From: Clostridia bacterium
GTDB lineage: Bacteria; Bacillota; Clostridia; UMGS1810
Reading direction: 5' to 3'
Length of the DNA stretch: 64,000 nt
Assembly: GCA_045540815.1 (NCBI GenBank)
Contig: JAZQHY010000040.1
Location: forward strand, 8,539 to 72,538
How positions within the stretch are numbered: position 1 is the stretch's first letter; each line of letters begins with the position of its first letter. A program made the position numbers and the translations under genes. Below, piece by piece: positions 9,318-49,772 of this stretch. The notes beneath the pieces are model-generated. The model had not been told where the DNA came from. It saw only the letters and a list, made by a program, of their open reading frames with translations, and ran no database searches.

Positions 9318-9698
9318 TTAATCAATAAAAGTAACCATCTTAGTCCAGCTGTCGTCATCATCTGCATCAGACATTTCTATGTTTTCTTTGACAGGCTGAG
9401 CCTTGTTTTCTACAGGCTTTGGAACTGTTGCACTGCGGTATTCATCTAATAGCTTTGATGCTGTGTTAATGCCGTCGTCGGATACTGAATAAAGCGTCAT
9501 TTTGCCTGATTTTCGTTGGGATATTATACCGCTTTCGCATAAAATCTTCATATGGTGGGAAAGCGTAGATTGCACTATGCCGACATTTTTTAAAATGTCA
9601 TTTGCACACATCTCGCCTTTTTTTAAAAGTTCGATTATTTCAAGTCTGTTCTCATCGCAAAATGCTTTGAAAACACGTGCTGCATCTTCTCTTTTCAA
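9318..9698 (-). CDS. ArsR/SmtB-family transcriptional regulator with an acidic C-terminal tail
   Basis: FKAFCDENRLEIIELL..CANDI..VQSTLSHHMKIL winged-HTH pattern. Tail SDADDDDSW. Confidence 0.8.
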   Translation of the reverse strand: MKREDAARVFKAFCDENRLEIIELLKKGEMCANDILKNVGIVQSTLSHHMKILCESGIISQRKSGKMTLYSVSDDGINTASKLLDEYRSATVPKPVENKAQPVKENIEMSDADDDDSWTKMVTFID

Positions 9699-9898
9699 GG
9701 TTGGACACCTCCATACAAAACGATATTTATCGATATGTTATATTTTACACTAATAGAAAATTTTTGTCAAATTTTGATGTATAATTATAGTTAAAAGTGG
9801 AAATAATGTATGTTGACAAAGTGTGTATGCATAGTATAAAATATAAAAGCGGTTAGAGTGACACTGCCGAATCTTTGGCAGTGACACCTTGAAAATAC

Positions 9899-36828: not shown

Positions 36829-38097
36829 ATGTTAGACATAAAAATTTTAAGAACAGAACCTGAAAAGGTTAAAGCAGCGCTTAAAAGCAGAAACTCTGAA
36901 ATAGATGTTGATGCTATCATAAAGCTTGACGAGGAAAGAAGAAGTGTACTTTTTAAAGTTGAGCAGCTTAAGAGCAAACAAAACGAAGAAAGCAAAAAAA
37001 TTCCTCAGCTAAAAAAAGAGGGTAAGGACGTAAGCGGTATTTTTGAAGAAATGAAAAAACTTTCTGACGAGATTAAAGCGCTTGATGCAGAAGTAAGAGA
37101 ATACGACGAAAAAGTGCAGATGGCTATGCTTACCATTCCAAATATCCCCGATGAATCGGTGCCAATCGGTGACAGTGATGCAGATAATGTTGAGATAAGA
37201 AAACATCTAGAGCCAAGAAAGTTTGATTTTGAACCAAAGGCGCATTGGGATATTGGTGAAGGCCTTGATATCCTTGACTTTGAACGCGGTGCAAAGATTT
37301 CAGGCGCGCGTTTTACTGTGTACAAAGGTCTTGGTGCAAGACTTGAAAGAGCGGTAATTCAGTTCTTCCTAAACACTCACACAGAAGAGTCGGGATACAC
37401 AGAAATATTCCCTCCATATATGGTAAACAGAGCATCTATGACAGGTACAGGTCAGCTTCCAAAATTTGAAGAAGATGCATTCAAGGTTTCAAACAACGGC
37501 TATTTTATGATACCTACAGCAGAAGTTCCCGTTACAAATCTTCACAGAGATGAAATTCTTGACGGAAGCAAGCTTCCTATAAAATATGCTGCGTATTCAG
37601 CGTGCTTCAGAGCAGAAGCAGGCTCTGCCGGCAGAGATACCAGAGGCCTTATCCGTCAGCATCAGTTCAATAAGGTTGAGCTTGTAAAATTTGCAAAACC
37701 TGAAGACAGCTTTGCAGAATTAGAATCACTTACAAACGACGCAGAAAAGCTATTACAGAAGCTTGGTATAGCATACAGAGTGGTTTGTCTATCATCTGGC
37801 GACCTTGGTTTTTCTTCTGCAAAAACATACGATATCGAGGTGTGGATGCCAAGCTACGGCAGATATGTTGAGATTTCTTCTTGCTCAAACTTTGTCGATT
37901 ATCAGGCAAGACGCGCTAATATTAAGTTTAAAAACTCTCCTAAGGACAAAGCTCAGTTTGTTCATACTCTAAACGGCTCAGGTCTTGCAGTGGGCAGAAC
38001 TGTTGCAGCTATACTTGAAAACTATCAGAACGAAGACGGCAGCGTAACAGTTCCTGAGGTTTTAAGGCCTTATATGGGTACAGATATTATTAAATAA
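36829..38097 (+). CDS. serS: Seryl-tRNA synthetase
   Basis: MLDIKILR N-terminal coiled coil plus class II motifs ([30 protein letters not shown]). Confidence 0.95.
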
Positions 38098-38113
38098 AAA
38101 TCTGAAAAAAGTG

Positions 38114-38142
38114 TTGACAAGCAATATTACGTGTGGTATTAT
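38114..38142 (+). promoter_or_regulatory. Extended -10 sigmaA promoter of the aro leader
   Basis: TTGACA (38114-38119), 17 nt, TGgTATTAT (38134-38142). Confidence 0.65.
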
Positions 38143-38174
38143 ATTTTTAATAAATTTATGAGGATTGTTTAACT

Positions 38175-38243
38175 ATGAAAAGATTAAGCTTTGCAGCTGA
38201 ATACTTTTATTACTTTTACTTTAGCAAAACAAAAATAAAGTAA
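38175..38243 (+). CDS. Tyr/Phe-rich leader peptide (22 aa) of the aroF-tyrA operon
   Basis: MKRLSFAAEYFYYFYFSKTKIK. GAGGA RBS 10 nt upstream. 7 aromatic codons in 8 consecutive positions. Confidence 0.6.
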   Translation: MKRLSFAAEYFYYFYFSKTKIK

Positions 38244-38308
38244 GAGTGATTTCTGATGCTGCAAATCGAATGTAGTCCTTGTATAAATAATAATACTTCG
38301 ATTAATAA

Positions 38309-38350
38309 GGTTCTATCACAGTGAGAAATCACAGTGGAAGAACCTTTTTT
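38309..38350 (+). terminator. Attenuator terminator upstream of aroF
   Basis: GGTTCTATCACAGTGA-GAAA-TCACAGTGGAAGAACC (13/16 bp) followed by TTTTTT. An alternative 9-bp pairing exists between GTGATTTCT (38246-38254) and AGAAATCAC inside the terminator. Confidence 0.7.
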
Positions 38351-38378
38351 AATTCGAAAAATTTGGGAGGAAATAAAA

Positions 38379-39380
38379 ATGATAGTAATTTTAAAAGACA
38401 AAACACCAAAACAGCAGATTGACAAGCTAGTTGGCTGGGTCGAAGAACAGGGCGTTGGAGCGCATCTTTTTGAGGGACATTTCCAGACAGTTATAGGACT
38501 TATCGGCGATACATCAAAAATTGATACCGACATCATTAGAACTCTTGATTGCGTAAGTGATGTTAAGCACATTTCGGAGCCGTTTAAGAGCGCAAACAGA
38601 AAGTTCCACCCCGACGATACAGTAGTTGATATCAGCGGAGTAAAACTTGGCGGCGGGAATTTCCAGATTATAGCAGGTCCTTGTTCTATTGAATCGGAAT
38701 CACAGCTTATTGAAACTGCAAACGGCGTTAAAGCTGCAGGAGCAAAGCTTCTTCGCGGCGGTGCGTTCAAACCAAGAACTTCTCCTTACGCGTTTCAGGG
38801 TATGAGAGCTGAAGGTCTTGAGCTTCTTAAAAAAGCAAAGAAGGAAACTGGTCTTCCTATAGTAACAGAGATTATGGATATATCTCATCTTGAACTTTTT
38901 GACGATGTAGATGTTATACAGGTTGGCGCTAGAAATATGCAAAATTTTGAGCTTTTAAAAGAGCTTGGTAAAACAAGAAAACCAATCCTTTTAAAAAGAG
39001 GCCTTTCAAGTACTATTCAGGAACTGCTAATGAGTGCTGAATACATTATGGCTAGCGGCAATGAAAATGTCATCCTATGCGAAAGAGGTATCAGAACATT
39101 TGAAACTACAACCAGAAACACCCTTGATATCTCGGCTGTATCGGTTATCAAAGAACTAAGCCACTTACCTGTAATAATTGACCCATCTCATGCTTGCGGT
39201 ATTGCTAAGCTTGTTAAGCCTATGGCTATGGCAGCTGCGGCAGCAGGCGCAGACGGTCTTATGATAGAAGTTCACAACAACCCCGCAAAAGCACTTTGTG
39301 ATGGCCCACAGTCACTTACTCCTGACCAGTTTGCAGATGTTGTTAAGAGTGTAAACAAGGTTTTGGAGGCGTGCAAATAA
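38379..39380 (+). CDS. aroF: 3-deoxy-7-phosphoheptulonate (DAHP) synthase, type I-beta with N-terminal regulatory domain
   Basis: IAGPCSIES, LRGGAFKPRTSPY, PVIIDPSH. The ATG at 38379 follows GGGAGG. The ORF-track start at 38334 lies inside the terminator. Confidence 0.88.
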   Translation: MIVILKDKTPKQQIDKLVGWVEEQGVGAHLFEGHFQTVIGLIGDTSKIDTDIIRTLDCVSDVKHISEPFKSANRKFHPDDTVVDISGVKLGGGNFQIIAGPCSIESESQLIETANGVKAAGAKLLRGGAFKPRTSPYAFQGMRAEGLELLKKAKKETGLPIVTEIMDISHLELFDDVDVIQVGARNMQNFELLKELGKTRKPILLKRGLSSTIQELLMSAEYIMASGNENVILCERGIRTFETTTRNTLDISAVSVIKELSHLPVIIDPSHACGIAKLVKPMAMAAAAAGADGLMIEVHNNPAKALCDGPQSLTPDQFADVVKSVNKVLEACK

Positions 39381-40216
39381 TGAACGTAGGTATTGTAGGT
39401 CTTGGACTTATAGGTGGTTCGCTGGCAAAAGCGTTTAAAAGGCATACAAATCATACCATACTTGGTATGGACGTTGCTCATGCGCCCGTTGCTGCGGCAA
39501 AGCTTTTGGACGCTATAGACGATGAACTAACTGCAGACAGACTTTGTGAGTGCGATATAATTATTATGGCGACATATCCGCGTGCAACAGTAGAATTTTT
39601 GGAAAATAATGCTTCAAAAATAAAAAAAGGTGCAAAGGTTATTGATTGTGGCGGTGTAAAGAGAGTGGTTTGCGAAAAATGCTTTGATATTGCAGCAAAA
39701 AACGAATTTACGTTTATTGGCGGACACCCTATGGCAGGCACGCAGTTTACAGGTTTTAAATACTCTATTGAGGATATGTTTGACGACGCGTCGATAATTC
39801 TCGTTCCTGAACGCACAGACGATATAAGCCTTTTATCTGAGATAAAGAATATATTTACAGACATTGGCTTTGCATCGGTAACCATTTCAAAAGCTGACGA
39901 ACACGACGAGATTATCGCATTTACATCACAGCTTGCTCACGTGGTGTCAAATGCATACGTGAAAAGTCCAACTGCAAAGCGCCATAAAACCTTTTCTGCA
40001 GGCAGCTACAAGGATTTAACCCGTGTGGCAAAGCTTAACGAAACAATGTGGTCGGAGCTTTTTATAGATAACGGCGACAATTTATCGCACGAGATAGAAT
40101 CGCTTATAACCGAGCTTTCTAAATATAACGAAGCGATAAAAAACAAAGATTTTGATGCGTTGAAGGAACTTCTAAAGCAAGGCAGAGAGCTTAAAGAACA
40201 AATAGATGGTGTATGA
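39380..40216 (+). CDS. tyrA: Prephenate dehydrogenase
   Basis: MNVGIVGLGLIGGSLA Rossmann fold and GGHPMAG. The start overlaps the aroF stop (TAATG). Confidence 0.85.
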   Translation: MNVGIVGLGLIGGSLAKAFKRHTNHTILGMDVAHAPVAAAKLLDAIDDELTADRLCECDIIIMATYPRATVEFLENNASKIKKGAKVIDCGGVKRVVCEKCFDIAAKNEFTFIGGHPMAGTQFTGFKYSIEDMFDDASIILVPERTDDISLLSEIKNIFTDIGFASVTISKADEHDEIIAFTSQLAHVVSNAYVKSPTAKRHKTFSAGSYKDLTRVAKLNETMWSELFIDNGDNLSHEIESLITELSKYNEAIKNKDFDALKELLKQGRELKEQIDGV

Positions 40217-40220
40217 TATA

Positions 40221-40345
40221 AAGGGATAGCGATAGGGCGCGTTTTCTTAGGGATGAAATGTCCAAAATGCATTGTTTTGGTGCATTACATTGTCAAAACC
40301 AATTAATCCCTAAGAGAACGAGCCCTAGGCTATCCCTTTTTTGCT
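40221..40345 (+). terminator. Unusually long compound hairpin plus T-tract after tyrA
   Basis: AAGGGATAGC/GCTATCCCTT, TAGGGC/GCCCTA and GTTTTCTTAGGGA/TCCCTAAGAGAAC give about 29 bp. They enclose a 53-nt apical region. The hairpin is followed by TTTTTT. Confidence 0.6.
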
Positions 40346-40347
40346 TA

Positions 40348-40376
40348 TTGACAAAAAAGCCTAGTAATAATAAAAT
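40348..40376 (+). promoter_or_regulatory. Promoter of the pqqD-like operon
   Basis: TTGACA (40348-40353), 17 nt, TAAAAT (40371-40376). Confidence 0.55.
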
Positions 40377-40410
40377 AGAAATAGTAGTATTAATTTGGAG
40401 GTAATACATT

Positions 40411-40674
40411 ATGAAGATAAAATCAGGCTTTATTCTAAAAGACGTTGCAGGTAGCAACCTTATAGTGCCAATAGGCGAGAACTTGGTTGATTTCAGCCAG
40501 ATGATAACTATAAACGAAACAGGAGCATTTCTTTTTAATAAATTAATTGACGGTGCAGAGCTTGATGAACTTGCTAATGCTTTGACAGAGGAGTACGATG
40601 TGGATTTTGACAGCGCAAAATCTGATGCCGAAAAATTTGTTAAGCTTCTTGCTGACGAAGGAATGTTAGAATAA
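40411..40674 (+). CDS. PqqD-family protein (RiPP recognition element-like)
   Basis: 87 aa with the pattern ...LIVPIGE..MITINETGAFLFNKL..ELDELANALTEEYDVD...DAEKFVKLLADEGML, typical of PqqD/RRE domains. Confidence 0.75.
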   Translation: MKIKSGFILKDVAGSNLIVPIGENLVDFSQMITINETGAFLFNKLIDGAELDELANALTEEYDVDFDSAKSDAEKFVKLLADEGMLE

Positions 40675-41153
40675 TGATAGAATTTGAAAAGATAAAATAT
40701 GCCCAGATGAAATCAATAGTTCCGCTTATACAAAGCGTAATTTCAGACGGACGGGAGGCTAAAATACGCGTTACAGGAAACAGTATGTACCCGACTCTTA
40801 TTGACAGGCGGGATACTGTTCGTCTTTGTACTATTGATAGGATTAAAGTCGGCGATGTCATACTATACCTCCGTGAAAACGGTGATTACGTTCTTCATCG
40901 CGTTATCGGGAAAAAAGGAGATAACCTAGCTTTTGCTGGCGACAATGAACTCATTCGTGAATATCCTGTAAGCACATCGCAGTGCATAGCGAAAATGACC
41001 GGTTTTATAAGAAACGGTAAAGAATATGATTGCAAAACAAACATCAAATATAGATTTATGGTTTTTTTGTGGACTCGTCTGTTTTGTATGAGAGGTATTT
41101 TGGCAAAGGTATTTGGAGTATATATTTTAATAAGAAGGAGATTTAAAAAGTGA
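40674..41153 (+). CDS. S24/S26-family serine peptidase, SipW/ER-type-like (Ser-His)
   Basis: GNSMYPTL box and HRVIGKKGD box, with His where bacterial SPase I has Lys. No N-terminal TM segment and a hydrophobic C-terminal tail. The start overlaps the pqqD stop. Confidence 0.65.
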   Translation: MIEFEKIKYAQMKSIVPLIQSVISDGREAKIRVTGNSMYPTLIDRRDTVRLCTIDRIKVGDVILYLRENGDYVLHRVIGKKGDNLAFAGDNELIREYPVSTSQCIAKMTGFIRNGKEYDCKTNIKYRFMVFLWTRLFCMRGILAKVFGVYILIRRRFKK

Positions 41154-42823
41154 GTGGTAAAAACGGTGCATTAAGCTGGATAATCAAACATTCCAAACGA
41201 TATATTCCACACCTGTGTGTACTTACAAATTTAGGAATATTTATATCTGCTTTAGCGGTTGCGTTTTCCCTTGTTTCTAAAAACGTAGTTGATATAGCAG
41301 CTGGTCAAATACCCGGAAATCTTATTGTCGCAGCGCTTGGACTTGGATTTCTTATAATCAGCCAATTAGTTGTACATATCCTTTACTCGCTTATTGATGT
41401 TAGATTTTTAGGAAGGCTTAGAATTACCCTTAGAAATGAATTGTTTTCTTCGATATTAAGCAAAAAGTGGATAGAAATCACCAAATATCACACTGGTGAA
41501 CTGCAGAATAGATTGTACAGCGATATAGGAGTTGTTGTGTCAGGTGTAGTTGACATAATCCCTAATGCGGTGTCTTTTATAGCTCGAATTGTACTTAGCT
41601 TCTGCGCGCTTTATATGATGGATTCTTTTTTTGCCGTGCTTTGCTTGTTGGTAGGCCCTGTTATACTTGTGCTAACACGCGTTTACAGCAAATATATGAA
41701 AAGATGGCATAAGAGATGCCTTGAAAGCGAAGGTAAAGTTCGCTCGTTCTTGCAGGAGTGTTTACAAAATCTTATAGTAATTAAGTCGTTTGGAAACGAA
41801 AATAAGATTGTAGATAATGCTACAAAGCTTCAAAACGATGCTTACAATCTTGAAATAAAGAGAAATAACATAAGTATATCTGCTTCTGTTATGTTCTCGC
41901 TTGTTATGACTGTCGCATACTATTTTACGCTTGGCTGGTGTGCATATAAACTTTCTATGGGCGTGATGTCTTTCGGTACACTTATTGCAATGCTTCAGCT
42001 TGTGGGTCAGGTTCAGTCGCCATTTAAGGAGCTTTCGTCCATTTTGCCTAAATATTATTCTATGATAGCCTCGGCGGAGCGAATTTTGGAAATTGAGCAA
42101 ATGAACGATGATAAATGTGAAAACGACCAAAATGCATATGATTTGTATAATAATATGGAGAAAATTGTCGTTGAAAATCTTTCGTTTTCGTATGATAATG
42201 AAAAAGTTCTTGATGATACAGGCTTTGAGATAGAAAAAGGTGAGTTTGTAGCGATTTGCGGCCGTTCGGGAATAGGTAAAAGCACTATCCTTAAACTACT
42301 CTTGAGTATTATATACCCTGACGCAGGACGTATATATATGAAGCTTTCCGACGGAATTAGCGTTCCAATATCGAAGGACACCAGAAGCTTATTTGCATAT
42401 GTGCCACAGGGAAATATGATACTTTCTGGTACTATACGTGAGAACATAGCTTTTTCAAACAAAACCGCATCTGACGAGGATATCAAAAGATGCGCGCAGG
42501 CAGCAGATATGTGGGAGTATATAGAATCTCTTCCTGACGGACTTGATACTATGCTTGGTGAAAAAGGTTTGGGTTTGTCGGAGGGTCAAATTCAAAGGCT
42601 TGCAATAGCCAGAGCGCTTTTATATGATGCGCCCATACTTCTTTTGGACGAGGCTACCTCGGCACTTGACGACGCTACAGAAAAGCGGGTTATTGGCAAT
42701 ATAAGAGAGATGAACAAAAAAACTTGTATATTTGTTTCTCATAAAAAAGCCGCTGTCGAAATGTGTGATAAAAGTGTAGTGATAAACAATGGGAATTTTG
42801 AAATTTTGCACAAAAACAAATAA
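41150..42823 (+). CDS. ABC exporter, fused permease-ATPase (no C39 peptidase domain)
   Basis: N-terminal 6-TM domain, GRSGIGKST, LSEGQIQRLAIARAL, LLLDEATSALD. GTG start overlaps the previous stop. Confidence 0.88.
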   Translation: MSGKNGALSWIIKHSKRYIPHLCVLTNLGIFISALAVAFSLVSKNVVDIAAGQIPGNLIVAALGLGFLIISQLVVHILYSLIDVRFLGRLRITLRNELFSSILSKKWIEITKYHTGELQNRLYSDIGVVVSGVVDIIPNAVSFIARIVLSFCALYMMDSFFAVLCLLVGPVILVLTRVYSKYMKRWHKRCLESEGKVRSFLQECLQNLIVIKSFGNENKIVDNATKLQNDAYNLEIKRNNISISASVMFSLVMTVAYYFTLGWCAYKLSMGVMSFGTLIAMLQLVGQVQSPFKELSSILPKYYSMIASAERILEIEQMNDDKCENDQNAYDLYNNMEKIVVENLSFSYDNEKVLDDTGFEIEKGEFVAICGRSGIGKSTILKLLLSIIYPDAGRIYMKLSDGISVPISKDTRSLFAYVPQGNMILSGTIRENIAFSNKTASDEDIKRCAQAADMWEYIESLPDGLDTMLGEKGLGLSEGQIQRLAIARALLYDAPILLLDEATSALDDATEKRVIGNIREMNKKTCIFVSHKKAAVEMCDKSVVINNGNFEILHKNK

Positions 42824-42880
42824 TTCAACTGTACACATTGCACAAAAACGAAAAAACTCCGAAAAAAATAGACTTAAGCA

Positions 42881-42909
42881 TTGACAACCAGAATTTATTT
42901 TAGTATAAT
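42881..42909 (+). promoter_or_regulatory. Perfect consensus sigmaA promoter
   Basis: TTGACA (42881-42886), 17 nt, TATAAT (42904-42909). Confidence 0.7.
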
Positions 42910-42953
42910 TTACCTAAGAAATAATAATCTGATGAGAGGGGATTTATTTTATT

Positions 42954-44027
42954 ATGAGAACAAAGAAAATGCTTTTTAAAGCAGCAGTATGTCTAATGGC
43001 TGTTGTAATAATGATGTTTTCTACAGTTTCAGCTCTAGCTGCTGCAGATTACTACACAACTACAACATACAATTTGTCTACTGGTGAAGTAACTGTTAAA
43101 ACTACTGTAACTAATGTTGCAGCAAACGACGAAATTGCTTACATAGCATACACAGGTGGAAATCCTGAAGATGATGATGCTATCTTCTACATCGACCAGA
43201 TAACTGCAGAAGAAGGCAATAATGTAATTGAATACACTGCACCTGCAGAGAAAATTGCTGATGACACTCATGTTATGCTAGTTGGTACTACAGCTGGTAA
43301 GCTTTCTGAGGATCAGACTGATGCTATTAAATTTGGTACAGACTATACTCTTACTGTTGTTGCAACAAACGGTAAAGTTGCTTTAGCAGATGCTGCTGAT
43401 GCTGCAAACAAAACTGAAGTTGACAATAAGACTGCAGAAATTAAAGTTGGTAATGGTAACGAAATCATATATCAGTTAACAGCTGCAGAAGGTTTCGACG
43501 ATACAAACCCTGTTGTTACTTTAGTTGATGGTCAGGGCGCAGCAATCGCTCACGAAAACAAAACTTTTAAAGTGACTGGCGATGCTACTCTTACTGTAAC
43601 ATTCAGCAAAACTGAAACAAAGACTGAAGCAGTTGAAGAAGAAGAAGTAAATGATGCTGAAAAAGAACTAGTAGATGTTACAACAAATACAAATGTTAAT
43701 ACAGGTGAAGTTGTTGAAACAAAAGCTATCACTAAATTTGGTACTATGACTATTGGTGATACAGCATGTGCTGCATATGGTATTGAACTAAGTGACACAG
43801 CTGACTTTGCTAATAAAGAAGTGTTCAATGGTCTTGGTACTTGGGCTGACCTAACAGATAAAAATGGTAGATTCGCTATCGTAATCGAAGGTACTCCAGA
43901 AGAATTTGAAAATGTAACCTATTATATAAGAACATTTGTTACAGTTGGTGACAATACAACATACGGTAAAGTTTTTGAGTATGTAAATGGTGTTGGTGAA
44001 ATATACACAGCTCCGGCTGCTAACTAA
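42954..44027 (+). CDS. Secreted Thr/Val/Asp-rich protein of unknown function
   Basis: Sec-type signal peptide (MRTKKMLFKAAVCLMAVVIMMFSTVSALAAAD). 357 aa. Codon choice differs from its neighbours. No family recognised. Confidence 0.6.
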   Translation: MRTKKMLFKAAVCLMAVVIMMFSTVSALAAADYYTTTTYNLSTGEVTVKTTVTNVAANDEIAYIAYTGGNPEDDDAIFYIDQITAEEGNNVIEYTAPAEKIADDTHVMLVGTTAGKLSEDQTDAIKFGTDYTLTVVATNGKVALADAADAANKTEVDNKTAEIKVGNGNEIIYQLTAAEGFDDTNPVVTLVDGQGAAIAHENKTFKVTGDATLTVTFSKTETKTEAVEEEEVNDAEKELVDVTTNTNVNTGEVVETKAITKFGTMTIGDTACAAYGIELSDTADFANKEVFNGLGTWADLTDKNGRFAIVIEGTPEEFENVTYYIRTFVTVGDNTTYGKVFEYVNGVGEIYTAPAAN

Positions 44028-44069
44028 TAGTAATTATTTTATAGATAATATAATAGGAGGATGATTTCG

Positions 44070-44273
44070 ATGAAAAAATTATATGAAGTTCCAGCAATGG
44101 AAATCGTTAGATTAGATGCTTCTGAAAATATAGCTAAGTTACCTTCTGCAGGTACTGGCGAAGGTTCTACATCAACAAGCACTACTGGTTCAGCAGTAAC
44201 AACTACTGTTAGAACAAAAAGCTTAATGGCTGAAATACTTGGTGCTGCATCATCTAACAACGTAGATGCTTAA
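44070..44273 (+). CDS. 67-aa Ser/Thr-rich small peptide without a signal sequence (candidate precursor peptide)
   Basis: MKKLYEVPAMEIVRLDASENIAKLPSAGTGEGSTSTSTTGSAVTTTVRTKSLMAEILGAASSNNVDA. AGGAGG lies 9 nt upstream. A terminator follows. Confidence 0.55.
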   Translation: MKKLYEVPAMEIVRLDASENIAKLPSAGTGEGSTSTSTTGSAVTTTVRTKSLMAEILGAASSNNVDA

Positions 44274-44292
44274 TCATTAATTAAGATATTTA

Positions 44293-44330
44293 AAGGTTGA
44301 TACATATTTGTATCAACCTTTTTTATTTTT
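44293..44330 (+). terminator. Intrinsic terminator after the small peptide gene
   Basis: AAGGTTGATA/TATCAACCTT stem followed by a T-run. Confidence 0.85.
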
Positions 44331-44496
44331 AATATTTAAGGCGAGTAAATAAAGTAGCTGTGGAAGACACAGATAAAGTATTGCCAGTTTTACTGCATTT
44401 GGAAAATATTATTTTGATAAAATCAACAAAAACTATGGATTTTTATTTTTGTTGTGGTATAATAGAAATATATATTATTTGAATAACGAGGAAAGT

Positions 44497-45360
44497 ATGG
44501 GATATTATAAAATCGCAGATATAGTATTTGAAATTAAAAATATAAATTACAATTTTTTTCATAAACGAATGAAAGCATATAAGCTTTGTGATACTCCGAC
44601 TAATGTTGATGTGGTTGTTTCATATGAAGAGCGTGATAATATCGAAGTTACGCATGAAAGGGCAATTGCACTAAAAAACAATCGCTATTGGGTTTATGAA
44701 AATGACGAATACATATTATATGATTATTATGATGAATTTAAAAAAACATATAGCTATATAAAGGCAAATGGTAATTGGAGCGTAGTTGAATGTGTTATAA
44801 GTGACGCGACAAATGAATTTGATGTTCCAAATGATGTAAGGAGCTTTAACATACTTTCGTTGGTTATGCAAAATGTAATACTATTTCGTAATGGTATAGT
44901 GCTTCACTCCTCTGCCATAGCATATAAGAATCAAGGCATAGCTTTTTTTGCCCCGTCAGGAACGGGAAAATCAACACATACACGACTTTGGAAAACATAT
45001 TACGATGATGTTGAAATAATAAATGACGATTCTCCCGCTGTAAGGATTATAGATGGGAAATATCTTATGTATGGCACTCCGTGGAGTGGCAAAACGGATA
45101 TAAATATAAATAAAAGTGTTGAGCTTAGCGCAATAGTATTTTTAAGGCAAGCGCACGAAAACTCCATAAGAAAAGTAAACAACACAATAGAGGCATTACA
45201 GGTTATACTACCCGAGATATATAAGCCAGCATTTGAAGATATGGCGGATTTAAATATGAATATGCTTGATAAGCTTATAAAAAATATTCCAATGTATGTA
45301 ATGTACTGCAATATTTCAAGAGAAGCTGTAGATACAGTAAAAAATGAAATTATAAAATAA
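44497..45360 (+). CDS. HPr kinase/phosphorylase C-terminal-domain-like P-loop protein (HprK-related kinase)
   Basis: LHSSAIAYKNQGIAFFAPSGTGKSTHTRLW resembles the HprK catalytic core. The ATG at 44497 follows GAGGAAAG. Very AT-rich. Confidence 0.55.
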   Translation: MGYYKIADIVFEIKNINYNFFHKRMKAYKLCDTPTNVDVVVSYEERDNIEVTHERAIALKNNRYWVYENDEYILYDYYDEFKKTYSYIKANGNWSVVECVISDATNEFDVPNDVRSFNILSLVMQNVILFRNGIVLHSSAIAYKNQGIAFFAPSGTGKSTHTRLWKTYYDDVEIINDDSPAVRIIDGKYLMYGTPWSGKTDININKSVELSAIVFLRQAHENSIRKVNNTIEALQVILPEIYKPAFEDMADLNMNMLDKLIKNIPMYVMYCNISREAVDTVKNEIIK

Positions 45361-45401
45361 TATAAAAATTAATAATATAAATTTGAAGGGGGAACCTACG
45401 A

Positions 45402-47051
45402 ATGAAAAAAATTATAAAACAAAGTGTAGTGTGGGGCATTATCGTCTCTTTAGTGCTTACAGGACAGATGATGGTATATGCACAGAAAACATTTACCGAC
45501 CTTACAAGCAGCCATTGGGCATATGCATCAATAAACACGTTGGTAAATGACGGAACAATAAATGGTTACCAGGATGGCACTTTCAGACCCGAGGGGACTG
45601 TTACCAGAGCGGAATTCGTTAAAATGATAGGCAACGGTTCGACAATGAGAGCTCAGAGATATTTTGACGTTGATGAAACTCATTGGGCATACAGCTACAT
45701 AATGACATCAGGTATGAAGGAAGATGGTTCAAACCGATTTTTCCCAGACAGACCTATCACCAGAGGCGAGGTAGTAGAGCTTTTGTGGAAACGAGGCGGC
45801 TCATTAAAAAACACAGTCGCACCATCGGTTGTTACAGACCAGTATAAAGATAATACTGATGCTATCGCATGGGCATATACATATGGACTAATGCAGGGCG
45901 ATAATGGTATAGACTTAAGAACAAGTGACACACTTACAAGAGCAGAAGCAACTGCACTAATTGTACGTGCTAGAGCAATAACAGTAAATTCACCAAAGAG
46001 CGATATAGTAAATACTGTTCAAGACGAACTTTTAAAAACTGTATTTGAAAGTGTAAATATATTTGAAACAAAAGAGTATGTACCTGAAAAGACTGTAACA
46101 AACGGCGAATTTGCCAGAGCAGCTGTAAGATTGGCAACAGGCGAACGTATGCTTACCTATAAAGGTTATTCAGCAGTTGAAGAATTTGATCATAAATATG
46201 CAAAAGATATATATGCTATCGGTACAGCGTGTCTTGGCGAGGACACTATAAACGCAGATTTTGCAGATAAGAAAACTACAGTTCAGGATGGCGTTGCTAT
46301 GCTTGTGCATGCAGCAATAAAAAATTCTGCTTACCCTGTAGCATATGGTTCAAAAAACAGCTATTATTCAGACATAAAAGGAAAACTATCTGATAAAGCA
46401 AACGAATATCTTACATATGCGTATAAAAATGGCATAAAACTTTATGCAAATGATAGAATTGATGCATCAAGAGAAATTACACATAAAGATATTGCCTGTG
46501 TGCTATTACAGCTTGATAAGAAAATAGGTCTTATCAGATCAAAAACAACTACTGAGAATAGTGCATACAGTGCAGACAAAATAAGAACAGACCTTGGTTC
46601 ATATCCAGCAAATGCATCTGAATATGTGTATATCTTGGAGGACGTTCCAAACCTTGCTTATACAACCGAGCTTACTGCGTATGGAGATGTTAAATCTGAT
46701 CGTAGTGCAGTGTTTGCTTTGGCAAATGAATATAGCTATATATTTGAATCCACTTTAAAAAGCTATAGATATTTATGTAAGAAAAACGGTGCAGATGTAA
46801 AATTCACTTACTATCCTTCACTTGTTTATGATAATGGCAATGGTTATACAATGCGTGTAAAATGTGAGATTATCGGCGAACCTATGAGTGTTTATATGCA
46901 GGATATGTTCGAGGGTGAATATGGTGATAACTACAAAGTATATAAGGGTATGACATTCTTTATGGATATAGTAACAGGCGGTCCGGTTACAGATATAGTT
47001 ATCGATACCGATAAAGTAGAAGTAGATAAGATGGTTGCTATCATAAAATAA
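45402..47051 (+). CDS. Cell-surface protein with three N-terminal SLH domains
   Basis: Signal peptide plus three SLH repeats (FTDL..HWAY..INGYQDGTFRPEGTVTRAEF, FDVDETHWAY.., ..AIAWAY..LTRAEA). The C-terminal 350 aa are unassigned. Confidence 0.75.
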   Translation: MKKIIKQSVVWGIIVSLVLTGQMMVYAQKTFTDLTSSHWAYASINTLVNDGTINGYQDGTFRPEGTVTRAEFVKMIGNGSTMRAQRYFDVDETHWAYSYIMTSGMKEDGSNRFFPDRPITRGEVVELLWKRGGSLKNTVAPSVVTDQYKDNTDAIAWAYTYGLMQGDNGIDLRTSDTLTRAEATALIVRARAITVNSPKSDIVNTVQDELLKTVFESVNIFETKEYVPEKTVTNGEFARAAVRLATGERMLTYKGYSAVEEFDHKYAKDIYAIGTACLGEDTINADFADKKTTVQDGVAMLVHAAIKNSAYPVAYGSKNSYYSDIKGKLSDKANEYLTYAYKNGIKLYANDRIDASREITHKDIACVLLQLDKKIGLIRSKTTTENSAYSADKIRTDLGSYPANASEYVYILEDVPNLAYTTELTAYGDVKSDRSAVFALANEYSYIFESTLKSYRYLCKKNGADVKFTYYPSLVYDNGNGYTMRVKCEIIGEPMSVYMQDMFEGEYGDNYKVYKGMTFFMDIVTGGPVTDIVIDTDKVEVDKMVAIIK

Positions 47052-47060
47052 TATTAAATC

Positions 47061-47092
47061 AAAAAAAGACTTCCTTTGTGGAAGTCTTTTTA
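47061..47092. terminator. Bidirectional terminator between the SLH gene and uppP
   Basis: AAAGACTTCC-TTTGT-GGAAGTCTTT flanked by A-runs and T-runs. Confidence 0.8.
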
Positions 47093-47140
47093 TTGTATTC
47101 TCACGTGTCTTAAGGGAGGGGTTAAAATCGATAATTTACA

Positions 47141-47956
47141 TTATCTAATAAAACTAAAATACAATAATACTATTATACCTAGCACTATTCTATAGTAACC
47201 AAATGATTTGAAATCGTGTTTTTTAACAAATTCCATAAGGAACTTTATACACATCATTGATACAACGTACGCAACCGCCATACCTGTTAATAGGATTATG
47301 ATATTGTCACCGGTCATAAGGTCAAGATTACTTATTATCTTTAAAAAACTTACCCCAACCATAACAGGTATTGCAAGGAAGAATGAAAACTCTGCCGCGA
47401 CTCCTCTTGAACATCCAAGTATTATCGCACCAAGTATTGTAGCACCCGAACGAGATGTGCCAGGAATGATAGAAAGCACCTGAAATAGACCGATTAAAAG
47501 TGCGGTTTTGTAGGACATATCCGCTAAATCATTTACAAGCGGATTTTTCTTTCTGTTTTCTATAACTATAAAAAGTATGCCGTAGATTATAAGTGTTGCC
47601 GCTACTACAAATGGAGTTTCAAACTTTTCCATAATAGGGTCTAAAATCAGCCCGAATACCGCCGCCGGAAGACAGGCAACTATAACTTTAAACCACATAT
47701 TCCACGTAGATTTTTTCTCGCTTGCCGACTTTGACGGCGAAAGCGGATTGAGTTTTTTGAAGAAAAGCGTAACTACTGCAAGTATCGCACCTAGCTGTAT
47801 AACATATATGTACAGGTCACTCGCTGTAAATTCATTGTAATTGTTTAAAAATGAATTTACCAGTATCATATGACCTGTGCTTGATATTGGTAGCCACTCA
47901 GTGATTCCTTCTACTATACCCAGCAAAATGGATTTTAGCATTTCAATAAATAGCAT
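47141..47956 (-). CDS. uppP: Undecaprenyl-diphosphate phosphatase
   Basis: [14 protein letters not shown] and [10 protein letters not shown] motifs. 8 TM segments. Confidence 0.92.
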
Positions 47957-47966
47957 AAATTCTACC

Positions 47967-48932
47967 TCATTTCAAAGTGTTTTTATATTCATATAATGTT
48001 TCCTTCAGTATGCTTAAATCAGTTATCAGATTAACAGTGTTTCTAAGCTTTGTAGCATTTTTTAGTCCTTTTGTGTACCAAGCGATGTGCTTTCGTGCCT
48101 CACGTATGCCTATGTGCTCGCCTTTTAACTTTATAAGTAAATCAATATGTTCGTTTAACGTATCCATTCTTTCGCAAGGACTAGGCTCATATAGTGCATT
48201 TCCATATTCAATATATTCAAGCACCTGTTTAAATATAAACGGATTTCCTTCTGCACCTCTTGCTATCATTACCGCATCACAGCCTGTGTGGTCAAACATA
48301 TCCATTGCGTCTTTTGCGGTGAAAATGTCACCATTTCCTATAACAGGTATTGATACCGCCTTTTTTACATCGCGTATGATGTCCCAGTCGGAATGTCCCG
48401 AATAATACATTTCACGCGTTCTTGGGTGAATGGTAATAGCCGATGCACCATTGTCTTCTATAACTTTCGCAATCTCGCAAACGTCAATGTGGTCTTTGCC
48501 GTAACCAGAACGAATCTTGCAGGTAACAGGCACGTCCACCGCGTTTGAAACCGCCTTTACTATCTTGCCAATGTTTTCGGGGTCTTTTAAAAGTGCACTT
48601 CCGTCACCATTGTTAAATACCTTCGGCGCAGGGCAACCCATATTAATGTCGAGAATTTTTCCAACACCATTAAGCGCCCTGTTTGCCGTACTTGCCATAA
48701 TTTCAGCATCACTACCGAAAATCTGCACCGCAAGAGGAGCCTCCGCCTCGTCTGATACAAGTAGCTCAAAAGTCTTTTTGTCACCATAGTGAATCGCTTT
48801 TGAACTTACCATTTCACTGTATACCAGACCAGCACCAAACTTTTTGCATATAAGCCTGAACGGAAGGTCGGTTACGCCCGCCATTGGTGCTAAAAATATA
48901 TTGTTGTCTAAAGTTATATTTCCTATTTTCAT
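47967..48932 (-). CDS. dusB: tRNA-dihydrouridine synthase B
   Basis: [28 protein letters not shown]. Confidence 0.9.
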
Positions 48933-48985
48933 AATGTTCTCCGTTTCTATTTATTTATTTTATCATAGAATAAATAAATTGGCAA

Positions 48986-49016
48986 TAAAAAGCCTTGCGA
49001 AATACATACGCAAGGG
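48986..49016 (-). terminator. Minus-strand intrinsic terminator downstream of dpaB and the GC-rich element
   Basis: On the minus strand: CCTTGCG-TATGTATTT-CGCAAGG followed by CTTTTT. Confidence 0.75.
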
Positions 49017-49055
49017 AAATATTATTCATATGATATCTGTATCGATTATTTGGTT

Positions 49056-49150
49056 TGGGGACCGGGGTATCCCCGGCCGGTAGGGGTCCGGGGCGAATCG
49101 GAACGCCCCGGGGTTTTTGGACTTTTGACCCCAAAAGTCCCCGCCGGAGG
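49056..49150 (-). other. GC-rich triple-hairpin element of unknown function (3' UTR of dpaAB or a small RNA)
   Basis: Three stems: CCGGGG/CCCCGG (49062-49076), CCGGGGCG/CGCCCCGG (49088-49111) and GGACTTTTG/CAAAAGTCC (49119-49140). GC content is far above the surrounding sequence. Confidence 0.5.
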
Positions 49151-49187
49151 CAAAAGAAAATTATAAAAATATTTTGTTATACAGCAA

Positions 49188-49772
49188 TCACCTTTCTATT
49201 ATTACCGGTTGAATTTGCTTTTTTTCAAGAGCCATTTCAAGCGTAGGGAGTATCATAGTCATATCCGCGACAAGCGATGTCGGCTTTCCGCACGGGTCAT
49301 CCTGACCAAACGGAACAAAAAATACGTTTTTGGCATTTATAAGCATCCCCCAGTTTTTGGCGCAAGCTCCAAGTCCGTCGTTGGTTGATATGGCAATTAT
49401 AAGCGGATTATCATTTCGAAGATTTGCTTTTGCCGCCATGGTTACACACGTGTCGGTTATCGCGTTTGCTATCTTTGATACCGTGTTTCCTGTGCAAGGT
49501 GCTATGATAAGCGCATCAAGCAAATTTTTTGGTCCTATAGGCTCTGCGGTTTTGATGCTTGTTATTATATCCGAGCCTGTAATGTCCTTTACCTGTGATA
49601 TAAAATCTTCTGCCTTTCCAAAACGTGTGTCGGTGGAAAAACTCATTTCAGACATAATGGGCAAAACTCTAGCACCCGTTTCGGCAAGCTTTTTGATTTC
49701 AGGCAAAACCTTTGAAAATGTACAGAATGACCCCGTAAGAGCAAAACCAATTGTATATTTTGATAAATCCAT
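49188..49772 (-). CDS. dpaB: Dipicolinate synthase subunit B
   Basis: GFALTGSFCTF flavoprotein-like N-terminus. Adjacent to dpaA. Confidence 0.85.
   Translation of the reverse strand: MDLSKYTIGFALTGSFCTFSKVLPEIKKLAETGARVLPIMSEMSFSTDTRFGKAEDFISQVKDITGSDIITSIKTAEPIGPKNLLDALIIAPCTGNTVSKIANAITDTCVTMAAKANLRNDNPLIIAISTNDGLGACAKNWGMLINAKNVFFVPFGQDDPCGKPTSLVADMTMILPTLEMALEKKQIQPVIIER

Follow-up and report, generated by a model that had tools for sequence, protein, structure and literature searches.

The window analysed here is a 64,000-nucleotide stretch of contig JAZQHY010000040.1 (assembly GCA_045540815.1) from a Clostridia bacterium, and our subject is a block of seven + strand open reading frames (ORFs) within it, at 40411-47051. 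[quoted passage not shown] The interpretation draws on what can be read directly for the window, namely the gene set, the catalytic motifs, the fold of the kinase, the conservation of leader and core in the small peptide, and synteny. A sequence-only reading of this DNA had proposed a system for recognition, modification, cleavage and export of a peptide that fits no described RiPP class. The mechanistic idea is supported by the gene set, motifs and synteny; the second part no longer holds, because the same enzyme set has been described and tested as LPP (PMC13381572).

The LPP family was defined from 126 clusters, mostly from Bacilli, and is represented by lppA-K-B-S-D-N of Paenibacillus alginolyticus DSM5050. 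These genes encode the precursor LppA, the HprK-like kinase LppK, the RiPP recognition element (RRE) LppB, the signal peptidase I-like enzyme LppS, the MsbA-like exporter LppD and the NTP-transferase LppN (PMC13381572). In a heterologous host LppK adds one to four phosphates to core Ser3. LppS cleaves after T-1, for which LppB is needed, and the substitutions S29A, H68A and D93A abolish cleavage; the unphosphorylated precursor is a poor LppS substrate, and LppN is without effect (PMC13381572). The leader of LppA has the consensus YxxPxVLxHQxIxFETxxS (PMC13381572). Discrete lasso RREs bind a [Y/W]xxPx[L/V/I/F/A] motif, and in lasso and LPP systems kinase and peptidase alike are stimulated by the RRE (PMC13381572, PMC10368454).

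The seven genes of the block are as follows.

40411-40674, + strand: discrete RRE of the PqqD family, 87 aa, counterpart of LppB and of the lasso B1 proteins (PF05402, E 6e-15)
40674-41153, + strand: signal-peptidase-I-like Ser-His peptidase of the SipW/archaeal type, 159 aa, counterpart of LppS (TIGR02228)
41150-42823, + strand: MsbA-like half-transporter ABC exporter, 557 aa, counterpart of LppD (ABC_membrane 1e-27, ABC_tran 5e-26)
42954-44027, + strand: secreted Thr-rich protein of an unnamed family, 357 aa, with a signal peptide (one N-terminal hydrophobic segment)
44070-44273, + strand: predicted precursor, 67 aa, with a leader of about residues 1-23 (MKKLYEVPAMEIVRLDASENIAK) and a Ser/Thr-rich hypervariable core of about 44 aa (leader hidden Markov model, HMM)
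44497-45360, + strand: HprK-like P-loop kinase of the ScmC family, 287 aa, counterpart of LppK (TIGR04249, 8e-7)
45402-47051, + strand: wall-anchored protein, 549 aa, with a signal peptide, three S-layer homology (SLH) and three SLH-like repeats and a C-terminal alpha/beta domain (SLH, E 1e-22)

An ORF listing accounts for every sizeable + strand ORF in the block. It contains all seven genes and both stop/start overlaps (40674 and 41150-41153) named in the sequence-only reading, and hydropathy agrees with its description of a secreted 357-aa protein and a 67-aa peptide that lacks a signal sequence. Family searches likewise returned PqqD, S24/S26-type peptidase (sub-threshold), HprK-related (weak) and SLH matches, as that reading had anticipated. 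As it had also stated, the block contains no match to a lasso cyclase or to a radical SAM, LanM or YcaO enzyme; a B2 protease is missing as well. The block has the appearance of a functional, conserved cassette.

RRE, peptidase and exporter

The first three genes are tightly joined. The stop codon of the PqqD gene and the ATG of the peptidase gene overlap by 1 nt at 40674, and the start of the exporter gene overlaps the peptidase stop by 4 nt (41150-41153). The top NCBIfam matches of the RRE are lasso PqqD chaperones, and in nearly all of approximately 35 related loci the RRE gene adjoins a peptidase gene.

Family scans of the peptidase gave the archaeal-type signal peptidase I model TIGR02228 (3e-10), Peptidase_S24 (1e-4) and S26 (4e-4), all with scores just below the respective cut-offs. 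The GxSMxP, HR and GDN boxes are invariant across 15 homologues, in which S37 and H75 never vary and position 96 is always E or D. BLASTP places S37, H75 and E96 of the window enzyme on S29, H68 and D93 of LppS, with Glu in place of Asp. By hydropathy (a Kyte-Doolittle window, with no dedicated topology predictor), the protein has no N-terminal hydrophobic segment and only a marginal C-terminal one (score 1.58), and the homologues in related loci L002 and L019 have none at all. In L028 and L029 the peptidase is fused to the exporter N-terminus, before the first transmembrane helix, at the place where peptidase-containing ATP-binding cassette transporters (PCATs) have their C39 domain. The missing anchor and this fusion together lead us to predict a cytoplasmic leader peptidase rather than a signal peptidase.

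The fusion ORF is 751 aa long (L028 9926-12181; L029 6675-8930) and its Peptidase_S24 match, at 33 bits, lies above threshold. The two metagenome-assembled genomes (MAGs) are labelled Alphaproteobacteria and Bacteroidales, yet are nearly identical at the fusion locus, and one of them is probably mis-binned. Peptidase-exporter fusions of 743-747 aa, such as that of Paludibacter propionicigenes, make up cluster 8 of the published sequence similarity network (SSN), where they are listed and not analysed (PMC13381572). An exhaustive profile search returned 7,754 peptidase cluster representatives at E<=1e-10, which are mostly stand-alone proteins of about 150 aa; an exact look-up of the window peptidase gave no recorded contig. 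In the longer representatives P0395 (444 aa), P0359 (481 aa) and P0392 (365 aa) the peptidase domain is C-terminal. In P0395 it is preceded by a weak ScmC match; this protein may be a kinase-peptidase fusion or a mis-called overlap, as the two genes overlap in L019.

The best NCBIfam match of the exporter is MsbA (2.6e-80), the family to which LppD is likened. It has no C39 domain, in agreement with the sequence-only reading, because the membrane domain begins at residue 24.

A ScmC-family kinase

Besides TIGR04249, its best model, the block kinase has weak matches to HprK_rel_A and HprK_rel_B. TIGR04249 is itself part of the 'HprK kinase' group of the LPP study, which comprises matches to TIGR04249, TIGR04352 and TIGR04355 (Supplementary Data 2 of PMC13381572). 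The start codon is at 44497 and not at 44449, in agreement with the N-terminus of homologues. These number 6,723; PF27840 (ScmC) is found in all of the 120 listed, and the few named ones are called hypothetical.

A profile search against PDB sequences returned only the P-loops of ABC proteins, and HPr kinase/phosphorylase (HprK/P) was reached by fold comparison. The AlphaFold (AF2) model of the kinase has a predicted local distance difference test score (pLDDT) of 93, and its top 28 PDB fold matches are all HprK/P or phosphoenolpyruvate carboxykinase, with probabilities of at least 0.99. H137, G157-K158-S/T, T160, W165 and D178 are invariant across all architectures of related loci. Residues H137, G155, G157, K158, S159, D177 and D178 match the lasso-peptide kinase motif, known from BsfK as H148-G163-G166-G168-K169-S170-D186-D187 and partly tested there by alanine substitution (PMC10368454); the first Gly of this motif is Ala in the subtype of the window. 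Model and motifs support the assignment of the fold and active-site signature of peptide kinases to this protein.

Precursor peptide with conserved leader and variable core

The gene for the small peptide is predicted to start at the ATG at 44070, nine bases past an AGGAGG ribosome-binding site, and not at the ATG chosen by the ORF finder (44061), which abuts AGGAGG and reads ACG in relative L042. No hydrophobic segment was detected in the 67 residues by hydropathy, and NCBIfam contains no model for such precursors. A leader HMM matches the window peptide at E 2e-11. Leader-bearing small ORFs (E 1e-14 to 1e-4) adjoin most cassettes that have enough flanking sequence, and the leader is homologous across approximately 30 loci from several phyla.

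In close relatives with enzyme identities of 70-88%, identity is 92-100% over the first 26 residues of the peptide and only 32-34% over the remaining 40 or so. The leader codons show six synonymous changes against two conservative replacements, which points to purifying selection on the leader. The overall pattern looks like that expected if the precursor is translated, its leader serves recognition and its core diversifies. As a separate observation, leader codons 5-17 (44082-44120) comprise 39 consecutive nucleotides that are identical in the window, L039 and L042, with zero synonymous changes. This exceeds what the protein needs, given the 70-88% identity of the neighbouring proteins; possible reasons are a recombination anchor for core swapping or a constraint at the RNA level.

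Residues 5-10 of the leader read YEVPAM and form a Y-x-x-P-x-hydrophobic motif. Met at the last position is outside the published L/V/I/F/A set, and relatives have V or I there. The tenth residue past P8 is S18, followed by E and N, and the window leader thus lacks the Px9Fx[T/A] element of LPP leaders. Thirteen residues past the Pro there is an (I/L)-A-x triplet, in the window I21-A22-K23 and then L-P-S. The x is A or T in most relatives, and their (I/L)-A-[A/T] may parallel the F-x-[T/A] of the LPP leader. If cleavage occurred after K23, the core would comprise 44 aa and begin with L-P-S, which would place a Ser at position 3 as in LppA. Spacing from the Tyr as in lasso or LPP leaders would instead put cleavage at I21/A22 or N20/I21.

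The C-terminal Ser, which is the site used by paeninodin-type kinases (PMC8498205), was considered as a kinase target and rejected because none of the 12 listed peptides from loci without a radical SAM enzyme ends in Ser. Among the Cys-rich precursors of relatives, 9 of 14 do.

Related loci and their architectures

We gathered approximately 45 related loci (given here as L numbers) by peptidase homology search, contig look-ups and a scan of species-representative genomes, and searched their ORFs with the seven window proteins and custom profiles. In this comparison of gene neighbourhoods, which the sequence-only reading had proposed as a check, the PqqD-peptidase-ABC-kinase set recurs with leader-bearing small ORFs. 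The nearest relatives of the window are Clostridia MAGs; the wider set also includes genomes assigned to Bacteroidota, Verrucomicrobiota, Acidobacteriota and Proteobacteria.

The full order of PqqD, peptidase, ABC exporter, secreted protein, small peptide, ScmC kinase and SLH protein recurs in L002/L013, L005, L007 and L048. Identity to the window is about 40% in these loci as well as in L001 and L022, and in L001, L002, L005, L007 and L022 the cassette is found elsewhere on the chromosome, following argS and a gene for an S41 peptidase. The close relatives L039, L041 and L003/L042 share the position of the window after serS-aroF(-tyrA). Recent horizontal acquisition of the block was therefore rejected.

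Other related loci place additional enzymes on the same chassis and fall into three types.

Radical SAM type: L012, L016, L017, L019 (Anaerocolumna xylanovorans DSM 12503), L020, L023-L026 and L033; one or two Cys-rich precursors that share the leader, together with a radical SAM/SPASM enzyme most similar to ScmE/ScmF
Double radical SAM type: L032 and L034; two radical SAM-like genes, with CxxxCxxC read from the sequence only
NTP-transferase type without radical SAM: L028/L029 and L030 (Sphingobacterium suaedae); NTP_transf_5 present, and the peptidase-exporter fusion in L028/L029

The radical SAM enzymes score below cut-off with every NCBIfam model, the nearest being those of SynChlorMet ScmE/ScmF (L012, L019, L024, L033). 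The regions with Cys-rich precursors are at 13439-13902 in L012, 9000-9176 in L019, 4849-5238 in L024 and 8761-8946 in L033, and L032/L034 have such precursors as well. These versions look like an uncharacterised thioether-type RiPP group on an LPP-like chassis. No homologue of their radical SAM maturase was found anywhere in the 64 kb of the window. NTP_transf_5 genes occur beside the relatives L019, L028 and L030.

Several related loci are placed among capsule or exopolysaccharide genes. CpsB (scores of 1e-46 to 1e-93), Wzz and genes for AAA_31 proteins resembling bacterial tyrosine kinases (BY-kinases) are found beside L012, L019, L021, L024, L026 and L027. The regions concerned are L012 9202-15589, L024 494-7008, L019 5513-6259, L026 12143-12895, L021 7967-9702 and L027 10443-11159. 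In L012 and L024 the cassette is located between cpsB and wzz. This setting agrees with the one reported for LPP. One organism has a split module, in which the SLH gene adjoins PqqD-peptidase-ABC at one locus, and the second (L049 4175-8867) consists of wzz, a BY-kinase-like gene and cpsB, followed by the genes for the secreted protein, the peptide and ScmC.

Within the published network, the window is closest to clostridial groups that were left unanalysed, as judged from pairwise comparison with a sample of the network. Its peptidase matches two SSN cluster-1 sequences at E 4e-11 and 4e-9 and so falls outside cluster 1, given that cluster edges correspond to E values better than 1e-23. It matches members of clusters 4/9 at 1e-25 to 7e-29, and the RRE is about 41% identical to theirs (for RRE and peptidase together, 36-43% identity and E 1e-20 to 7e-29). 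The members compared, from Anaerocolumna, Dehalobacter, an uncultured Ruminococcus and Firmicutes bacterium CAG:56, are marked 'ND' in that study (PMC13381572).

Secreted protein and SLH wall protein

Two proteins of the block go beyond the LPP gene set. In 12 related loci the gene for the secreted protein was located by custom HMM, phmmer or translated sequence immediately before that of the peptide, and in this subtype it always has this position; in L048 a 312-aa gene in this position was placed by position alone. The secreted protein has no Pfam, NCBIfam or PDB sequence match, and a Pfam scan of 12 homologues gave nothing consistent. It is only 42-49% identical between the close relatives whose enzymes are 70-88% identical, and it appears to evolve about as fast as the peptide core.

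The SLH protein belongs to a family of conserved wall proteins of 530-560 aa, with 431 homologues at E<=1e-20. Its AF2 model has a pLDDT of 89, and in a PDB fold search only the SLH triplet gave matches, to Sap and SpaA. An SLH orthologue adjoins PqqD-peptidase(-ABC) or the rest of the cassette in 13 of the 13 loci examined that hold one, three of which were picked only for having long contigs. It remains adjacent where the precursor lies elsewhere (L015, L018, L044 from Acetivibrio sp. MSJd-27, L046 and L047). Within 10 kb of the ScmC-PqqD-peptidase-ABC operon of Acetivibrio sp. MSJd-27 we detected neither a leader-bearing peptide nor a homologue of the secreted protein, and the substrate must therefore be encoded elsewhere in this organism. 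Just downstream of the SLH orthologue in L044 (5807-6382, - strand), and also in L043 and L045, is a gene for a 191-aa protein with no Pfam match. Based on their co-occurrence, the secreted and SLH proteins appear to be conserved parts of the module and not bystanders.

Proposed mechanism and alternatives

We hypothesize that a consensus promoter and a strong ribosome-binding site give abundant 67-aa precursor in the cytoplasm, and that the PqqD-family RRE recognises the leader through its YxxPx-hydrophobic motif (Y5-P8-M10). The RRE would hand the precursor to the ScmC/HprK-like kinase for (poly)phosphorylation of a Ser or Thr early in the core. The most plausible candidate is S26, which would be core residue 3 if cleavage occurs after K23. 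The RRE would also hand the precursor to the anchor-less Ser-His-acid peptidase for removal of the leader in the cytoplasm. The MsbA-like exporter, whose gene overlaps that of the peptidase, could then pump out a linear peptide of approximately 44 aa. This peptide may act at the cell surface, with the co-transcribed, fast-evolving secreted protein and the SLH wall protein as likely partners. The chemistry in this scheme is that of a Paenibacillus homologue which is 20-30% identical, and phosphorylation, the cleavage site, export and the roles of the partners are inferred for the window by analogy.

Several observations weigh against an LPP-type pathway in the window. The similarity to the characterised proteins is low, with 30% identity of the peptidase to LppS (E 4e-11) and 20% of the RRE to LppB (E 9e-4). 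The window has no LppN-type NTP-transferase: phmmer with the NTP_transf_5 protein of L019 found nothing in the 64 kb, and none of the seven block proteins matches PF14907. At the proposed phosphosite, S26, both of the closest relatives have Thr, and an S3T substitution was not tolerated by LppK (PMC13381572). F-3, E-2 and T-1, the leader residues on which cleavage by LppS depends, are absent from the window, which makes the cleavage site a guess. L001 and L022 have the same gene order without the exporter. L006, L008, L014 and L021 encode the RRE, peptidase, exporter, secreted protein and peptide with no kinase gene within reach, so phosphorylation is not obligatory for the chassis. At the surface end of the scheme, the C-terminal alpha/beta domain of the SLH protein gave only weak, uninformative structural matches in the PDB fold search, and the two surface proteins are putative partners of the peptide.

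A more specific variant of this scheme, which we put forward tentatively and consider rather improbable, is that the SLH-associated subtype without radical SAM enzymes is a cell-surface system of its own, in which the exported, possibly phosphorylated hypervariable peptide and the equally hypervariable, co-transcribed secreted protein are assembled on the conserved SLH anchor. Such a system could provide a strain-specific surface signature for kin recognition, phage-receptor masking or organisation of matrix or capsule, and would be the first concrete functional handle on LPP-like peptides.

The alternatives outlined below are each less likely than the interpretation as an LPP variant. The best of them, which is nevertheless unlikely, is that the peptide is merely trimmed and exported without modification, as a class II bacteriocin or a pheromone would be, except that an RRE-guided Ser-His peptidase replaces the C39 domain of the exporter. 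The target of the kinase-like protein would in that case be the secreted protein, a precursor of a wall polymer or a regulator. The four loci that keep the other module genes with no ScmC gene in their flanks would fit this arrangement, as would the genome with its kinase at a second locus beside capsule regulators, and the window peptide lacks the A-x-S start of the LPP core. However, most loci, and all three architectures, combine the RRE and peptidase with a ScmC-type kinase, the kinase gene of the split module remains beside the peptide gene, and homologous kinases phosphorylate precursor peptides in an RRE-dependent manner (PMC10368454, PMC13381572).

Very unlikely, in our assessment, is a role of the peptidase as a SipW-like signal peptidase for the secreted protein (cf. 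TasA/TapA), with an SLH-anchored surface fibre or layer as the product and the peptide as a minor accessory. The best family matches of the peptidase are to archaeal/SipW-type signal peptidase I, the signal peptide of the secreted protein has an AxA-type site, and the SLH and secreted proteins are co-conserved. Set against this are the missing N-terminal anchor, homologues without any hydrophobic segment, and the translational coupling of the peptidase to a cytoplasmic RRE. Relatives without the secreted protein keep the peptidase or fuse it to the cytoplasmic end of the exporter, and LppS itself cuts a leader peptide and not a signal peptide (PMC13381572).

That the block is the decaying, productless remnant of a lasso or radical SAM RiPP cluster that lost its core enzyme is barely credible: relatives do have radical SAM/SPASM maturases between RRE and peptide, and the best matches of the RRE are lasso chaperones, but all seven genes are intact with their catalytic residues, promoters, ribosome-binding sites and terminators are conserved, the architecture without radical SAM recurs in many genomes at 40% identity, and the leader appears to be under purifying selection.

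Borders and regulatory signals

The block is flanked by the genes for prephenate dehydrogenase (tyrA, upstream) and BacA/UppP. Its G+C content is 35.4%, compared with 39.4% in the rest of the window, and only 1.7% of equal-sized windows are as low; the difference noted in the sequence-only reading is real yet modest. The giant hairpin and bidirectional terminator that it had given as borders were both found, as was its perfect consensus promoter. The predicted signals are the following.

40220-40345, + strand: hairpin and T-run, terminator of tyrA and upstream border of the block (RNA folding, comparison with relatives)
40348-40376, + strand: predicted promoter TTGACA-17-TAAAAT of the PqqD-peptidase-ABC operon (11 of 12 consensus matches)
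42881-42909, + strand: sigma-70 consensus promoter TTGACA-17-TATAAT for the secreted protein and peptide (12 of 12, the best site of the region)
44056-44061, + strand: AGGAGG ribosome-binding site of the precursor gene (sequence reading; kept in L039 and L042)
44292-44331, + strand: intrinsic terminator right after the precursor gene (13-bp stem and T-run; kept in L039 and L042)
44455-44463, + strand: possible extended -10 promoter TGgTATAAT for the kinase and SLH genes (suggested by sequence reading)
47063-47091, both strands: bidirectional terminator, downstream border (12-bp stem detected on each strand)

Both hexamers of the promoter at 40348-40376 are invariant across the window, L041, L039 and L003. 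The element at 44455-44463 was not picked up by the consensus scan, and its -35 region is weak.

The hairpin at 40220-40339 has a predicted energy of -61.1 kcal/mol (z = -8.96; none of 200 shuffles was equally stable) and is followed by the T-run. In the window its loop holds approximately 90 nt of extra nested palindromic sequence. L041 (6775-6876) and L039 (9618-9738) have only a short hairpin on the common GGATAG...CTATCC base, and L003 (250-460) has a different G+C-rich insert at the same spot. The loop is possibly a variable insertion site for small palindromic elements. In L039 the region 9618-9738 directly joins the DAHP (3-deoxy-D-arabino-heptulosonate 7-phosphate) synthase gene and the PqqD gene, and gene calling placed no prephenate dehydrogenase between them, whereas tyrA is present upstream of the block in L041 (5939-6775) and the window (39371-40216). 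The upstream junction is therefore not fixed even among close relatives.

An Rfam scan of 38000-49500 gave only sub-threshold matches that overlap terminators (VrrA, Phe leader, L20 leader), which we treat as chance. The VrrA match (44202-44326; E 0.0025) reaches 37 bits, where the gathering score is 50. It covers the terminator of the peptide gene together with the 3' end of this gene and is probably driven by the terminator hairpin. PADLOC reported no defence-system match among the six non-transporter proteins of the block.

Implications

New in the subtype of the window are the secreted protein encoded directly before the peptide and the adjacent SLH wall protein. The chassis is far larger and more modular than published, with thousands of peptidase and kinase clusters compared to 126 LPP clusters, and is combined with radical SAM enzymes and Cys-rich cores, with a peptidase-exporter fusion or, as in the window, with no further enzyme. 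The SLH and secreted partners and the wzz/BY-kinase-like/cpsB setting provide a specific link of LPP-like peptides to the cell envelope. The main value of the block lies in this lead to the surface function of such peptides and in the evidence for the size and modularity of the family. Among cultured organisms, related cassettes are present in Acetivibrio sp. MSJd-27, Anaerocolumna xylanovorans DSM 12503 and Sphingobacterium suaedae.

Comparison with known systems

With the LPP clusters, the block shares a discrete RRE (PF05402) encoded in overlap with a SipW-type peptidase (TIGR02228), the HprK-like kinase, the MsbA-like exporter, and a peptide with a YxxP leader, a conserved N-terminus and a variable core of about 45 aa. 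It differs in gene order, in the conserved secreted and SLH proteins, in its occurrence in Clostridia rather than Bacilli, and in a leader with three additional residues from the Pro to the putative cleavage site. SLH proteins occur in 9 of the 126 published LPP neighbourhoods, and the main text of that study does not mention SLH, Clostridia, radical SAM enzymes or secreted partners (PMC13381572).

The phosphorylated lasso clusters (paeninodin pade and Bradymonas bsf) have in common with the block a B1-type RRE, a YxxPxL-type leader, an ABC exporter and an HprK-like kinase, which in those systems acts on the linear precursor with the help of the RRE. In contrast, family scans of the seven block proteins detected neither a B2 transglutaminase-like cysteine protease nor an asparagine-synthetase-like lasso cyclase, and leader removal is predicted to be carried out by a serine peptidase; the product is therefore predicted to be linear.

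The SynChlorMet cassette (TIGR04248-04251, comprising the PqqD-like ScmD, ScmC and the radical SAM proteins ScmE/ScmF) is defined in databases only, and a literature search on ScmC/SynChlorMet found no relevant paper. The block shares with it a ScmC-family kinase (PF27840/TIGR04249) and a PqqD-like partner, and relatives of the window additionally share ScmE/F-like radical SAM/SPASM enzymes and Cys-rich precursors, the double radical SAM type being the one that resembles this cassette. The window itself differs by having no radical SAM enzyme, and all scores are under the curated cut-offs.

SipW with TasA/TapA of Bacillus subtilis also combines a Ser-His signal peptidase of the ER/archaeal type with an adjacent gene for a secreted protein, but the window enzyme has no membrane anchor and is coupled to an RRE, and its secreted protein is unrelated to TasA. 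The C39 PCATs differ from the block in using a papain-like peptidase where the window has a serine peptidase of the S24/S26 fold, and the window system has no GG in the leader and needs a separate RRE. What both have in common is that leader cleavage is tied to an ABC exporter, to the extent that in L028/L029 the peptidase is the N-terminal domain of the exporter.

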